Shown here: positions 35,513-44,399 of the stretch, piece by piece
Layout of the letters: the number at the start of each line of letters is the position of its first letter
How positions within the stretch are numbered: the stretch's first letter is position 1
From: an uncultured Pseudomonadota bacterium
Lineage (GTDB): Bacteria > Bdellovibrionota_C > UBA2361 > CALMIO01
Assembly: GCA_937864035.1 (NCBI GenBank)
Contig: CALMIO010000011.1
Location: forward strand, 13,957 to 77,956
DNA length: 64,000 nt
Direction: 5' to 3'
Translations under genes and position numbers: made by a program
Notes under the pieces: model-generated
What the model saw: only the letters and a program-made list of their open reading frames with translations
Told to the model about the DNA's origin: nothing
Databases searched by the model: none

Positions 35513-35586
35513 GGCGACGTAGCTCAGCTGGCCAGAGCACAGAACTCATAATTCTGGGGTCGGTGGTTCGAGTCCACCCGTCGCTA
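35513..35586 (+). tRNA. tRNA with CAU anticodon (tRNA-Met elongator or tRNA-Ile2 lysidine type)
   Basis: Cloverleaf read by eye: acceptor GGCGACG/CGTCGCU (G1:U72), D-arm GCUC-AGCUGGCCA-GAGC, anticodon stem CAGAA/UUCUG with loop CUCAUAA, T-arm GGUGG-UUCGAGU-CCACC, discriminator A. It lacks the 3 G-C pairs in the anticodon stem that mark an initiator. Confidence 0.85.
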
Positions 35587-39867: not shown

Positions 39868-41685
39868 TTAATTGATGAATTTATTATCCATCTTATTTAA
39901 TAAGTTGTAGAAAATTTCGTTTGTTATTTCTGCTATGAGTTGTCTTTGGTTCTGATTAAATGGCACCCCTGCTTTTTGAGCATTATTGGCAACAGACATC
40001 AAGAAGGAGAACGCTTGTTCAACGTCGCCGTATTCTAATATCTTTAGTGCGCTCCTTAAGTTCACATCAATCGCTTCGGTATTTCCTAATCTTACAATAT
40101 GTTTAATTTCGTTTTCGTCTATTTCGATATCAGCTGTTTTAGCGTTTTCGAAAACCTTTAATAGATATTTTTGCATTTCCTCGACTTCGCCAGCCGCTGC
40201 CAAGTCTTGCGCTTGGGCTAAATTAAGAGGAATCGCATTTTTATTTGCCAGCTTAATGATACGTTGCATTCTCTCTTCTTCTGCGGAAGAGAAACGGATG
40301 CCGATTTTTTCGACGCTCCTGCGAGCCGCTAAAATGCAATCTGTTACTTCATCAAGCGCACCCAATTTTGCTAGCTGCTCGGCGCTAAACAAATTCATAG
40401 GAATTGCGTTTTTGTGCGCCAACTCAACTAATTGGTTTATTCGAGTTTTTTGCGCCTGAGTTAATTCGACTTTGGTGTCTTCAGCGACTTTCAGCATTGT
40501 CGCCACCAAACTTTCGACAAAATCAGCTTCACCACGAGGGGCGTATTCTAAAGCTCGGTTAAAATCCAAAAGAAACGCCTTTTCAAAAATACCTTTTATT
40601 GTTCTTTTTTGTTCTTCCAAAAGTTCAATCTCGGCCTTATCAGCATTTTTGTACGCCATGGCGACTAATTGCCCTGCTTGACGAGTGAAGCCGAATTTTA
40701 ATTTTTCCTCGGCTTTAGCTAAATTAACAACCAGCGCTTTAGCATGTGCCAGTTTAACAATGTCCCCCATCTCCTCGATTTTTTTAGGAGTCAGCTCGAC
40801 ACCGATTTTGCGGCAGGCTGATCTAATTTTTAACAACAACTCCTCTACTTTACCAGTATCGCCAACAGAGGCATGGCGCGACGCCAGTTCTAAAGCCATG
40901 ATAATTGCTTTCTCAAAAACACTTTTTATTTTCTCTGTTTGTTTCTCAGTAAGTTTAATTTCGGCTTCTTGGGAATTTCTGTAAACTTGAGCTATGAACG
41001 ACGCCGCTTCATCAACAAGACCTTTTTTCGCTTCCTCTTCAGCCTTAGCTAAGTTAACACAAATTGCGTTGAGATTTGCCAGTTTGACAATCAGTTTCAG
41101 ATTTTTTTCCTGTTCATCAGAGAGCTTAACTTTAGTTTCCTCGCAGTTAAATTCAACCAGTGATATACAACGCTTTGTCAAACAGACGTCGCCGATTGCC
41201 GCCGCTTTTTCTGCCTCAATCAACTTGACAGAAATCTCATTAATCATTGCAACCCTAATCATCTCTCTTATGGATTCCTTGTCAATTTTAACTCCTGCTT
41301 TTCGAGCTCGCGCAAGAGCCTCTCTTACATAAAACCGTACTTCATTGGCATCCCCTGATAACGCTTTTAATGAGGCTTTCTTTAAATGATTTGCTATTTC
41401 AATCTCGGCTCGAGTAGGTATTGTCGGCTGATTGCCTTTGGTAATGTTTTGTCGCGAGTTGTCAACGCGGGCACCCAGCGGATTAGTAGAGCGATCGCAA
41501 TCATTTTTGACAAAAGCTCCTTCCATTGGCGCTGGCGGAAGAGTGACTGCAAACACCGTCGAGGCTAAGAGCTTTAATAAAAAATTTTTTTGCTCATTAT
41601 TAGTTTGGAGTTTATTAGGCAACGGCGCGGGAATTTGCCTTTGCCTTTTGAACACCTCGTTTTTTAGAGGATCAGTTTTTGGCAT
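39868..41685 (-). CDS. Secreted alpha-helical tandem-repeat protein, paralog 1 (about 57-aa repeats of the form L-T-x-E-Q-x3-I...LA-h-x-NAI-x-VNL-x-KA-x-E...NA-x-KA)
   Basis: The ORF track starts at 41769, but those 28 codons overlap the conserved promoter (-35 TTGATT to -10 TATTGT). The start is probably the Met at 41685 (MPKTDP...), followed by a hydrophobic signal-like segment (KNFLLKLLASTVFAVTLPPAP). At least 7 internal repeats. Paralogous to the next gene. Confidence 0.65.
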   Translation of the reverse strand: MPKTDPLKNEVFKRQRQIPAPLPNKLQTNNEQKNFLLKLLASTVFAVTLPPAPMEGAFVKNDCDRSTNPLGARVDNSRQNITKGNQPTIPTRAEIEIANHLKKASLKALSGDANEVRFYVREALARARKAGVKIDKESIREMIRVAMINEISVKLIEAEKAAAIGDVCLTKRCISLVEFNCEETKVKLSDEQEKNLKLIVKLANLNAICVNLAKAEEEAKKGLVDEAASFIAQVYRNSQEAEIKLTEKQTEKIKSVFEKAIIMALELASRHASVGDTGKVEELLLKIRSACRKIGVELTPKKIEEMGDIVKLAHAKALVVNLAKAEEKLKFGFTRQAGQLVAMAYKNADKAEIELLEEQKRTIKGIFEKAFLLDFNRALEYAPRGEADFVESLVATMLKVAEDTKVELTQAQKTRINQLVELAHKNAIPMNLFSAEQLAKLGALDEVTDCILAARRSVEKIGIRFSSAEEERMQRIIKLANKNAIPLNLAQAQDLAAAGEVEEMQKYLLKVFENAKTADIEIDENEIKHIVRLGNTEAIDVNLRSALKILEYGDVEQAFSFLMSVANNAQKAGVPFNQNQRQLIAEITNEIFYNLLNKMDNKFIN

Positions 41686-41740
41686 AAACCTTATGACACC
41701 AACGCGATCAAAACTTTCGCGAAAAGCCATTCTTAATACA

Positions 41741-41769
41741 ACAATACCACCAAAACAATCTTTAATCAA
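41741..41769 (-). promoter_or_regulatory. Sigma-70-like promoter of repeat-protein gene 1 (TTGATT-17 nt-TATTGT)
   Basis: The -35/-10 pair and spacer are conserved at the DNA level with the region upstream of the paralog (43845-43874), while the reading frames there differ by 1 nt. This conservation pattern fits regulatory DNA rather than coding sequence. Confidence 0.35.
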
Positions 41770-41977
41770 GAAAAAGCGAAAAAAAAGGACGTAAAAAGCG
41801 ATTTTTTATTTTCTTATGCCATTTTGTCGGACAGCAAAATAAAATCAGTCAGCAAAATGAGTAATCGCTCCTTGCTACAAAGATATTGTTTCTCAAACTG
41901 GTAAGGGGGCACTTCGCGCCATGAAGCTTACACAATCACAGCGACACAAAGAGACATTAAAAAAATTGTTAAATAGG

Positions 41978-43702
41978 TTAATATATATTAAGAAGCTTGT
42001 TGATTGTTTCCACTATTTTTTCTTGTTTCTCATTAAACTTGATTTCTACTTTTTCGGCATTTTTGCGGGCAAAAGACAAGAATAACATCGCACCTTGAAC
42101 ATCGCCTTTTTTCGCCCTTTCTAATGCTTTACTTAAATTAACATCAACCCCATTGGTATGTGCTAATATCAATATAGCTTCGATTTCTTTTTGCAGTTTA
42201 TTATCTGGCTCCAGATTAGCTTTTTTAAGCTTGTCGAGAATTGTTGATGTGATTATTTCAACCATACCCACATCACCAGCTTCTGCTAGCTCTTTCGCTT
42301 TAGCCAAGTTGCGAGGAATCGCTTTTTCATGTGCCAGCCGAATGATGTTTTCCATTAGTTTTTCTTCTTCCTTAGTCGGCTTTAGATTGGCTTTTTTAAA
42401 ATTCTCGCGAGCATTTGATATAAACATCTCCGCCATACTGGTCACACCAGCTTCCGCTGATTCTTTCGCTTCAGCTAAGTTGCGAGCAATAGCATTAAGG
42501 TTCGCTAGCCTAATAAATTCCTTCATATCCTTCTTTGTCTCCTGAGCAAGCTCTAATTTGGCTCTTTGTGCATTACTTTCAACCTGAGACACTAACATCT
42601 CTACCCAATAATGCTCGCCGCGAGAGGCGTGCTCCGAAGCTTTTGTAAGAACTATATCAACCACCCCATAAAAAACCTTTTTTATCTTATCTTTTTGCTC
42701 CGAAGTAAGTACAACCTCTGCCTTCTCGGCATGATCGTAAGCAATGGATATGAATATCCCTATTTCATCAATATAACCAGATTTTAATTTTTCCTCAGCT
42801 TTTCCCAAATTAACGTCAATCGCGTTGCGGTGTGCAAGTTTAAGATAATTTTGAATTGTCTTTTTTTGTTCCAAACTAAACTCAATCCCAGTTTGTTGAA
42901 AACAATTCTTAATTTTCGACACCAATATCTCTACTCTATAAGCGTCACCCAAAGAAGCATGTTGAAATACTTCCTTTAAGGCAATATCAACCGCCTCTTC
43001 AAAAACAGTTTTTATTGTCTTTTTTTGTTCCTCAGTGAGCTCAACCTGAGCTTTTTTCGCATTGCGATAAACTGTGGCAATCAATCCACCTACACTATCA
43101 ACCTCGCCATCTTTGGCCAGTTGCTGAGCTTTATATAAATTAACATCAATCGCGTTTTTATTTGCTTCTTGAGGGATTATTTTTGCCAGCTCTTGTTGTT
43201 CTTCAGTTAGCTCAATTCCCTTTTTTTGAGCATTTTCAAGAGTTTCAGATAACAAAATCTCCGCTTCTGCAGCGCGTCCAAACGCGGCTAGCCTAATTGC
43301 CTTATCTAAATTATTAAGAACTCGGTTGACCTTCGCGAGCTTAATAAGTTCTTTTATATCTTTTTTTTGTTCATCGGTAATTTTAATGTCCAGTTGTTGA
43401 GCCTCATCCAGAGCTTTTTGTACACAAAACTCTACTCCATCAACATCACCAAGGAACGCTCTTTTCGACACCTCCTTTAAATGAGCTATTATCTTTAGCT
43501 CAGCTTTAGTTGGTACTCTTAAATTGTCGTCATTTGGAATGACTTCTTTGGCTCTTGAGTCAAGAAGGGCGACTAATATATTACGAGCGCCATCGTAATC
43601 TTGAGGTTTAAAGTTTTGCTTAACAATATCTTCAGCCGATGGGAGCGCCAAGACTGCCGTGGCTAGAAATCCCCAAAGACGGCTCTTTCCATTTGGCGAC
43701 AT
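41978..43702 (-). CDS. Secreted alpha-helical tandem-repeat protein, paralog 2
   Basis: The Met at 43702 gives a canonical Sec signal peptide (MSPNGKSRLWGFLATAVLALPSA|ED). The ORF track starts at an upstream GTG (43786). Repeats such as IKLAKVNRVLNNLDKAIRLAAFG..., IPQEANKNAIDVNLYKAQQLAKDGEV..., IRLAHEKAIPRNLAKAKELAEAGDV... Confidence 0.65.
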   Translation of the reverse strand: MSPNGKSRLWGFLATAVLALPSAEDIVKQNFKPQDYDGARNILVALLDSRAKEVIPNDDNLRVPTKAELKIIAHLKEVSKRAFLGDVDGVEFCVQKALDEAQQLDIKITDEQKKDIKELIKLAKVNRVLNNLDKAIRLAAFGRAAEAEILLSETLENAQKKGIELTEEQQELAKIIPQEANKNAIDVNLYKAQQLAKDGEVDSVGGLIATVYRNAKKAQVELTEEQKKTIKTVFEEAVDIALKEVFQHASLGDAYRVEILVSKIKNCFQQTGIEFSLEQKKTIQNYLKLAHRNAIDVNLGKAEEKLKSGYIDEIGIFISIAYDHAEKAEVVLTSEQKDKIKKVFYGVVDIVLTKASEHASRGEHYWVEMLVSQVESNAQRAKLELAQETKKDMKEFIRLANLNAIARNLAEAKESAEAGVTSMAEMFISNARENFKKANLKPTKEEEKLMENIIRLAHEKAIPRNLAKAKELAEAGDVGMVEIITSTILDKLKKANLEPDNKLQKEIEAILILAHTNGVDVNLSKALERAKKGDVQGAMLFLSFARKNAEKVEIKFNEKQEKIVETINKLLNIY

Positions 43703-43844
43703 TTGGTTCGCCGACGGCAGGTTTTGAAAAGATTGATTGCTTACTGTTGATTGGTTATTATTATTAATTTCTATCACATCTATCACAAATTGATTTATGA
43801 CGCCTATGCGATCAAAACTTCCACGAAAAAGTAATCTTTAAGAA

Positions 43845-43874
43845 GCAATACCAACAAAACAATTATTTAGTCAA
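43845..43874 (-). promoter_or_regulatory. Sigma-70-like promoter of repeat-protein gene 2 (TTGACT-18 nt-TATTGC)
   Basis: Homologous to the promoter of paralog 1. An in-frame TAA lies immediately upstream of the conserved block. Confidence 0.35.
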
Positions 43875-43997
43875 GAAAAACTGACAAAAATCAGAAAAAA
43901 GAGAATTTTTTGATTTTGTTTATACCGTTTTGCCAGAGAAGCAAAATCAACCCCCAAGAGGAATTGATTGACCCAATCGTAAAGATAATTTATTATT

Positions 43998-44285
43998 CTA
44001 CCCTTTGTCGTTAAATAATTTCTTAACGAGCTTGATAATTGCTTGAACAAAAACGCCGATCGCCGCAATTTTTCCAATTTGCGCCGCCAAGTCAGCCACC
44101 AGCGCTACCGCAGACGTTAGGCGATCGGGCTTTAATGCACCCTCTGCCAAAATGGCTTCTTGTGTAGCTTGCGGTAACCTGATCTGTTGAGAGGAAGATA
44201 GCAAAGAACCAGTTGCGCCCAAGTTGGTGTCGGTTAATTTAGGACCCACACAAAAGTCTGGCATATTGATATATTTTAGTAGCAA
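43998..44285 (-). CDS. Hypothetical small protein with C-terminal amphipathic helix (IGKIAAIGVFVQAIIKLVKKLF)
   Basis: 95-aa ORF between pgeF and the repeat-protein genes. No recognisable domain. Confidence 0.3.
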   Translation of the reverse strand: MLLKYINMPDFCVGPKLTDTNLGATGSLLSSSQQIRLPQATQEAILAEGALKPDRLTSAVALVADLAAQIGKIAAIGVFVQAIIKLVKKLFNDKG

Positions 44286-44399
44286 AACACTATAAAACTT
44301 AGCTTTGCTTACTCTCTTGAGAGTAAAAAAACAAATTTATTGACCTAAATCCTTATAATACCTACAACACGGTTGGTAGTCAAGAAAAATCGAACAACC

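Follow-up and report, generated by a model that had tools for sequence, protein, structure and literature searches.

Tandem paralogous genes for nine-unit alpha-helical repeat proteins with a predicted export signal in an Oligoflexia bacterium

Two adjacent minus-strand genes, here called par1 and par2, were analysed in a 64-kb stretch of contig CALMIO010000011.1 (this whole stretch is the window) from an Oligoflexia bacterium known only from metagenome assemblies. The corresponding open reading frames (ORFs) were listed at 39868..41769 and 41978..43786, as also given by the initial annotation. The two proteins are collinear (36% identity over 573 residues, E 3e-103), which bears out the tandem paralogy that the initial annotation had claimed; the pair goes back to the tandem duplication, long ago, of a gene encoding an all-alpha repeat protein of ~60 kDa, and both are members of a rare, uncurated alpha-helical repeat family. 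The par2 protein is identical to P0001, annotated as 'hypothetical protein, Oligoflexia bacterium', and this population of metagenome-assembled genomes (MAGs) has at least one further assembly in which the same par1 and par2 proteins are present.

Alignments of par1 with par2 shifted by whole repeats were also significant (E 3e-45, 3e-15 and 9e-8); internal repeats are therefore present in both proteins. BLOSUM62 self-similarity peaked at offsets of 57, 110, 167, 224 and 277 residues and reached 0.67 (par2) and 0.26 (par1), the best of 500 shuffles at any offset being −0.16 and −0.13, respectively. At the DNA level, a 56-nt unit was found 7 times with spacings of 171, 330 and 501 nt. By iterated hidden Markov model (HMM), nine repeat units were assigned to each protein, so that the 'at least 7' units of about 57 residues proposed earlier were exceeded. 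Most units open with L-[TS]-x-[EA]-Q. The standard unit has 57 residues; units 4 and 6 have lost 4 residues and so number 53, 'VFEEA' standing where the others have 'KLAxxNAI'. In both proteins unit 1 is incomplete, its long helix being reduced to the second half, and the chain closes with one more half-helix (FNEKQEKIVETINKLL or FNQNQRQLIAEITNEI). The units are 20–50% identical, and recent expansion is not in evidence. Units at the same position in par1 and par2 are more alike (mean 38% identity) than other pairs (29%); the nine-unit array was therefore in place before the gene was duplicated, and neither event is recent. Ala, Glu, Lys, Leu and Ile are abundant in the mature parts (pI 6.2–7.2). 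Antisense to the repeat genes, plus-strand ORFs of 99–157 aa are found at 39986-40459, 40685-40984, 40994-41332, 41432-41794 and 42153-42545; these are probably shadow ORFs from the biased repeat composition, not genes.

A hydrophobicity scan gave one hydrophobic segment of 12–15 residues and no other hydrophobic stretch in either protein. The segment is preceded by Lys/Arg and followed by proline and acidic residues (net negative); candidate cleavage sites are imperfect: AVLA↓L or PSA↓E (par2), TVFA↓V (par1). The polar n-region comprises 8–13 or ~35 residues, depending on the start codon, and ~40 disordered residues separate the hydrophobic segment from the repeat array in each protein. A segment of only 12–15 residues with unequal charge on its two sides favours a Sec signal that would place the array beyond the cytoplasmic membrane, and both proteins are, judged from their sequences, most likely exported. 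The genome encodes Tol-Pal and lipopolysaccharide (LPS) genes; a periplasm and an outer membrane are therefore present.

Public annotations of the identical DNA disagree on the starts. For par2, 574, 599 or 602 aa are given (ATG at 43702; GTG at 43777, the NCBI call; first GTG, at 43786); for par1, 620 or 633 aa, the disagreement lying at 41728-41730. The par1 frame is open up to a TTG at 41769, from which 633 aa would be read; this first TTG is the −35 hexamer itself. The ATG at 41685 of par1, used by no public annotation, and the GTG at 43786 of par2 are equivalent in position, just past a conserved leader block, and stand as the starts in Table 1. The 605 and 575 codons of the initial annotation correspond to the ATG at 41685 (par1) and the ATG at 43702 (par2). 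A Shine-Dalgarno-like motif was found upstream of 3 of the 34 confident genes sampled in the window, the start regions being merely AT-rich; the starts called in this genome can therefore hardly be relied on, and initiation that is leaderless or independent of a Shine-Dalgarno site may be common in it.

Table 1: Coordinates of the features of the par1/par2 locus (positions of the window)
Feature	Position	Strand	Description
par1 coding sequence	39868..41685	−	605 aa from ATG at 41685
par2 coding sequence	41978..43786	−	602 aa from first GTG, at 43786
par1 repeat array	39871..41448	−	nine 57/53-residue units and C-terminal cap; positions equivalent to par2 units
par2 repeat array	41981..43543	−	nine 57/53-residue units and C-terminal half-helix cap; HMM, periodicity, AlphaFold2
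par1 hydrophobic segment FLLKLLASTVFAVTL	41539..41583	−	PPAPMEGA after; putative Sec signal h-region; aligns with par2 segment
par2 hydrophobic segment LWGFLATAVLAL	43643..43678	−	K-S-R before, PSAEDIV after; putative Sec signal h-region
par1 conserved leader, with AAGTTTTGATCGCGTTGGTGTCATAA	41686..41740	−	79% identity of block with par2
par2 conserved leader, with AAGTTTTGATCGCATAGGCGTCATAA	43787..43844	−	in-frame TAA upstream; most likely untranslated
par1 promoter-like site	41741..41769	−	TTGATT, 17 nt, TG-G-TATTGT; repeat family D6
par2 promoter-like site	43845..43874	−	TTGACT, 18 nt, TG-G-TATTGC
Third promoter copy	44355..44383	−	TTGACT, 17 nt, TATTAT; upstream of 88-codon ORF
Upstream region still aligning	par1 41776..41852, par2 43881-43952	−	beyond −35 hexamer
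88-codon ORF	43998..44264	−	directly upstream of par2; called 88 or 83 aa in two MAG annotations
Peptidase_MA_2 gene	38869/38890-39702	+	HELLH motif, N-terminal hydrophobic signal-like segment

Structure models were obtained with AlphaFold2 from a two-row alignment (full-length par2) and from a six-row alignment of window-derived units (3-repeat fragment). For full-length par2 the mean predicted local distance difference test score (pLDDT) was 83.6, with most repeat blocks >90 and residues 1–62 of the 574-aa form <50; for the fragment the pLDDT was 95.4 and the predicted template modelling score (pTM) 0.81. The repeats were modelled as all-helical, which supports the all-alpha character supposed in the initial annotation. 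In the modelled unit a first helix of 31 residues is joined by a three-residue G-D turn to a second of 17, after which comes a six-residue linker beginning L-T-x-E-Q. Relatives such as P0010, P0014 and P0003 start with L-x-x-A-x-x-x-A-x-x-G-D and finish after T-x-E-Q-x-x-x-I. Because unit 1 is without the first half-helix, the proteins close with an extra half-helix and the relatives are capped likewise, the folding unit would be a three-helix bundle: the second half of a long helix, the short helix and the first half of the next long helix. Such small bundles would share a continuous helix with their neighbours, as in spectrin, and each protein could form a miniature spectrin-like rod of nine bundles.

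Foldseek searches of PDB and BFVD gave no match at E ≤ 0.001 for either model, and nothing below E 0.48 against the viral folds of BFVD. The best, weak structural neighbour of the 3-repeat model was the N-terminal region of the S-layer protein SbsC (TMq 0.32–0.37; E 0.2–0.7); the exocyst subunits Exo70 and Sec10 were weak neighbours of the full-length model. The SbsC spectrin-like repeat (Pfam PF22360, ~62 residues; PDB 2RA1, 4UJ6) is, as here, an all-alpha tandem unit of ~60 residues, and SbsC is an exported protein, export of par1 and par2 being predicted from sequence. The positions of the caps fit helices shared between neighbouring bundles, as in spectrin, and the 31-residue helix and cap phase are compatible with spectrin-type three-helix packing, which for par1 and par2 is inferred, not observed (best TM 0.37 at E 0.2). 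PF22360 matched one of ten window units below threshold (E 0.13; 13.5 bits, cut-off 26), SbsC was absent from the PDB sequence matches, and SbsC continues into beta-rich self-assembly domains, whereas par1 and par2 consist of repeats only.

A PDB sequence search with the whole protein found nothing; with the repeat profile, only de novo designed helical repeat proteins were obtained (E 1.3e-5 to 2.7e-4), the best matches being DHR54 (PDB 5CWL; E 1.3e-5) and the filaments DHF46 and DHF91. The match spans the hairpin A-x-x-A-x-x-G-[DN]-x-D/E...L-x-x-A-x-x-x-A-x-x-x-G. Idealised helix-turn-helix tandem repeats rich in Ala, Glu, Lys and Leu are common to both groups; the designed proteins are artificial, and the likeness would be convergence on ideal helical hairpins. 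The designed units have ~43 residues in two equal helices and form compact solenoids; here the unit has 57 residues with helices of 31 and 17. Superposition on the compact designed solenoids was poor (TM 0.22–0.25; root-mean-square deviation 16 Å), and TM-scores to TPR-like and designed solenoids together were 0.2–0.29.

In the curated libraries, no Pfam family was matched by par1 or par2. Models of TPR, Sel1 or related repeats were absent from the scans of the two proteins (E up to 1) and of ten single units (E up to 10), and no family was common to the 58 relatives scanned at E up to 0.01. With NCBIfam, only noise was obtained for par1 and par2; with PHROGs, only matches of E ≥ 0.02. PADLOC gave none, and tblastn of plasmid and phage sequences gave no match to either protein. 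The initial annotation had been unable to assign the repeat to TPR, Sel1, ankyrin, PPR or any other named family and had proposed HMM searches of the single repeat and of the full proteins; these, run against Pfam, returned no curated family above cut-off, nor did the NCBIfam scans alter that assessment. The FIMAH domain was considered and rejected: only the distant relative P0050 passes (25.3 bits, cut-off 24.8), and the window units are without a match. Nothing relevant was found in the literature on LTXXQ, FIMAH and secreted repeats of Oligoflexia.

Relatives were collected solely from an exhaustive profile search of 1.84 billion representative proteins; word-indexed searches with a single protein, the repeat profile and the family profile gave the query alone or nothing, their candidate lists being flooded by low-complexity words. 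Matches numbered 59 at E ≤ 1e-3, 18 at E ≤ 1e-10 and 3 at E ≤ 1e-30, and two of the last three are par1 and par2 themselves. With three cluster members added to the matches, 250 units were counted in 60 proteins (1–9 units per protein; periods mostly 53, 54 or 57). No ortholog of par1 or par2 was found outside this MAG population in the exhaustive protein search, a genome-collection scan and annotated proteins; the genome-collection scan was made with the two-paralog alignment and gave nothing, the lineage of the MAG not being among its species representatives.

In some relatives the array has other surroundings. P0055 carries an N-terminal F-box (32.2 bits, above the Pfam cut-off) followed by six repeats of this family. 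F-box proteins normally carry substrate-binding repeats in the position after the F-box; the arrangement suggests a substrate-adaptor architecture of eukaryote type, in which the array can serve as the substrate-binding module. A subfamily of ~520 residues in UBA10199-type and 'Deltaproteobacteria' MAGs (L002 6001-7584, L003, L004, L005) has 8 repeats, a conserved N-terminal domain of ~70 residues (M-G-x-x-x-x-G-P-I-x-I-x-D-N-G-D-G-x-Y…) and a near-invariant penultimate unit (LGKVDDTxVPLNA); in its fully flanked loci (L002, L004) the gene lies after an unannotated ORF of 285–306 aa and before a radical-SAM/DUF2344 gene and RNase G. P0010, the nearest small relative (two near-identical units), adjoins a 459-aa tyrosine integrase in an apparent integrative element (L006 2115-2510); in a near-identical element on another metagenome contig (L007 7858-8082), the copy is one unit shorter and is interrupted by an in-frame stop. 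Elements of the P0010 type thus show a change of repeat number on a mobile element. A conserved gene neighbourhood was looked for and rejected, the radical-SAM/RNase G and integrase flanks of the relatives having nothing in common with the par1/par2 locus.

Upstream of the two genes, a common promoter design was found (TTTTTCTTGAYT, 17–18 nt, TG-G-TATTGY). Exactly 3 copies of the pattern CTTGAYT-N14-17-GGTATT are present in the 64 kb, against 0.03 expected, always on the minus strand and before par1, par2 and the 88-codon ORF. The upstream regions of par1 and par2 align over about 160–180 nt. The promoter-plus-leader block, which extends from the T-tract ahead of the −35 hexamer as far as GTCATAA, shows 79% identity in 86 columns, and the next 80 columns upstream show 62.5%; for the coding DNA the figures are 55% over its whole length and 48% at third codon positions. 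The 26-nt core of the leader occurs only twice in the window (0 expected). The duplicated sigma-70-like promoters and early leaders of the initial annotation therefore stand on the excess of 79% over 55% identity, and its view that the longest-ORF extensions are promoter DNA is the better reading, the par2 block being closed by an in-frame TAA without a canonical start.

A non-coding leader is preferred, on sequence grounds. For a coding one, the block is in frame with both ORFs, carries a 3-nt indel and shows several third-position differences; the par1 leader may be read from an ATG at 41730 (MAFRESFDRVGVI...) and could be coding. For par2 this was rejected: the in-frame TAA stands immediately ahead of the block, and between the two there is no ATG, GTG or TTG. 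A structured RNA was likewise rejected; the leader had no Rfam match and folded no better than shuffles (z −0.75, −1.06), its consensus being a 6-pair hairpin (−4.6 kcal/mol) without compensatory change. An AT-rich inverted repeat, TTTTG(C)-N7-8-(G)CAAAA, was observed in both upstream regions (~41823-41842 and ~43925-43946, minus strand), some 65–85 nt before the −35 hexamer. A regulator may bind there, or the repeat could weakly terminate the preceding gene.

Taken together, par1 and par2 are read as Sec-exported, non-enzymatic envelope scaffolds, perhaps chains of small three-helix bundles, a reading in which about even confidence is placed. The short hydrophobic segment would most likely be a Sec signal and less likely an uncleaved anchor; either way the remainder of the protein would sit outside the cytoplasmic membrane. 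A rod of this kind would offer long repetitive surfaces for protein binding or act as a cell-envelope spacer; it would hardly be an enzyme, because no catalytic family was matched by par1 or par2 in the Pfam and NCBIfam scans. A role as a binding module is suggested by P0055, since there the six repeats follow the F-box where substrate-binding repeats normally sit. Each paralog would have kept its own sigma-70-like promoter and a leader of ~55 nt, more conserved than the coding DNA, and par1, par2 and the 88-codon ORF would be co-regulated, as their common promoter design indicates.

Several points weigh against this reading. The AlphaFold2 models were built on alignments of 2 and 6 rows, all from the window, and the three-helix packing is deduced, not read from the model coordinates. 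The upstream starts put ~35 polar residues before the hydrophobic core, which is atypical for Sec signals, and the mature part of par1 has 7 cysteines, an odd number that would be less unusual in a protein of the cytoplasm. Of the 59 relatives, about 54 are without an N-terminal hydrophobic segment, and P0056 has a membrane anchor whose flanking charges point to an array in the cytoplasm; a place outside the cytoplasm is therefore no inherent property of the family. The promoters of par1 and par2 fall below the 9-of-12 threshold of a generic promoter scan, in which the third site is listed and promoter-like sites in the region were no more numerous than in shuffles; the promoter argument therefore rests on conservation.

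Some of these points lend themselves to the alternative that par1 and par2 are not released, the segment being an uncleaved anchor or differently translated, and that they are membrane-attached or cytoplasmic scaffolds, as most relatives would be. Besides the rarity of export signals among the relatives and the cysteines of par1, the true N-terminal transmembrane anchors of a few relatives (P0051, P0056), the uncertain start codon with its long and polar N-terminal region and the absence of a clean A-x-A cleavage site from the sequences speak for it. The cores of 12–15 residues with a proline soon after are, however, short for a membrane span and typical of signal-peptide cores; the charge, positive before and net negative after the segment, favours a position of the array outside; and the segment was kept in both paralogs despite 36% overall identity. 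Non-release is accordingly regarded as possible but doubtful.

Doubtful, too, is an extension of the scaffold reading, to which no great weight is given. Here the 57-residue unit would stand for a natural fold class not described before, in which three-helix bundles of near-'designed' ideality are strung together like a miniature spectrin. The two co-regulated exported copies would form rods of ~20 nm and, along with the co-regulated 88-residue protein, would bridge or gauge the periplasm or cover the surface.

In the initial annotation the genes were placed with secreted, fast-evolving surface proteins, adhesins or effectors of host or phage interaction, to which interaction with prey may be added. 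Tandem paralogs with a probable export signal would suit such a role, as would a rare and patchy family of variable repeat number, with an integrase-adjoining relative in a mobile element, a related copy of one unit fewer, and a eukaryote-type F-box fused in one member; Oligoflexia include predators and host-associated bacteria. The genes sit, however, among the housekeeping genes tolB-pal, ribF, rluD, lpxK, waaA and msbA; there was no PADLOC, PHROG, phage or plasmid match, and no adhesin-type domain or outer-membrane targeting signal in the Pfam and NCBIfam scans. The units are old (20–50% identity) and without recent expansion, and the supposed fast evolution is unsupported, par1 and par2 having no ortholog beyond this MAG population for comparison. 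With most relatives also lacking an export signal, the proposed role was not borne out and is considered unlikely.

Very divergent TPR/Sel1-like hairpin repeats of Pfam clan CL0020, acting as adaptors of TPR type, are a still less probable identity. TPR and Sel1 proteins are likewise tandem helical hairpins with small-residue packing positions, generally protein-binding scaffolds and, in the case of Sel1-like proteins, often periplasmic; A-x-x-x-A-x-x-G-[DN] and a second helix with small residues resemble their Ala/Gly packing signature, and TPR-like 2hr2 and TPR-containing complexes were among the weak Foldseek matches. Their units have 34–44 residues with two helices of ~15, whereas those of par1 and par2 have 57 (or 53) with helices of 31 and 17; no repeat model matched the proteins or single units even at E up to 1–10, none was common to the 58 relatives, and TM-scores to TPR and designed solenoids were only 0.2–0.25.

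Multi-domain relatives of the LTXXQ proteins Spy and CpxP (ATP-independent envelope chaperones or stress modulators) can be dismissed as highly improbable: almost every unit opens with L-[TS]-x-[EA]-Q, a literal LTXXQ motif standing at helix starts as in those all-alpha proteins, par1 and par2 are probably periplasmic, and NCBIfam gave a weak CpxP match (E 0.025), but its 14.5 bits are far under the cut-off of 160, hhalign of the repeat profile reached 3.0% (Spy) and 3.8% (CpxP) with sequences entered by hand and on the helix-start motif only, Spy and CpxP were absent from the PDB sequence and Foldseek matches, and they are single hairpin dimers of ~140 residues, not 9-unit arrays. L-T-x-x-Q/E is a generic helix N-cap motif, and the chaperone identity was rejected on the hhalign probability of 3–4%.

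If the finding is confirmed, a new uncurated alpha-helical repeat family with an unusual 57-residue unit (31 + 17) would be added as a candidate for Pfam. Since its sequences lie closest to designed repeat proteins, protein engineers might use it as a natural scaffold, and structure prediction could be tried out on it. In Oligoflexia biology, a small co-regulated set would result, consisting of two abundant-looking envelope proteins and a small ORF; the conserved leader is of interest in an organism largely without Shine-Dalgarno sites. The finding bears on no major open question.

In the orientation of the par genes, the gene order is tolB, pal (OmpA-like) and a TPR protein; ribF, rluD and Cu-oxidase_4 (YfiH-like); the 88-codon ORF, par2, par1 and the convergent Peptidase_MA_2 gene; then a Kef-type antiporter, a prepilin-type pilin, a glycosyltransferase, lpxK, waaA and an ABC exporter. 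From tolB-pal and the LPS genes it follows that the organism is a diderm with LPS. No mobile-element genes or dedicated secretion system were annotated near the locus in the window, and the locus is not mobile-island-like. The product of the 88-codon ORF was matched by no model of Pfam, NCBIfam, PADLOC or PHROG; towards its C-terminus, one half of it is hydrophobic or amphipathic (…AVALVADLAAQIGKIAAIGVFVQAIIKLVKKLF), and the promoter of the ORF suggests that it may be co-regulated with par1 and par2. The HExxH gene, which had been placed immediately upstream of the repeat genes, is in fact on the plus strand, convergent with par1 and downstream of it, with 165 nt between the stop codons; no evidence of a functional tie to the repeat genes was found. 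Among RNA families, a tRNA-Met (CAT) at 35513-35586 (plus strand) was the sole match in the 64-kb window.

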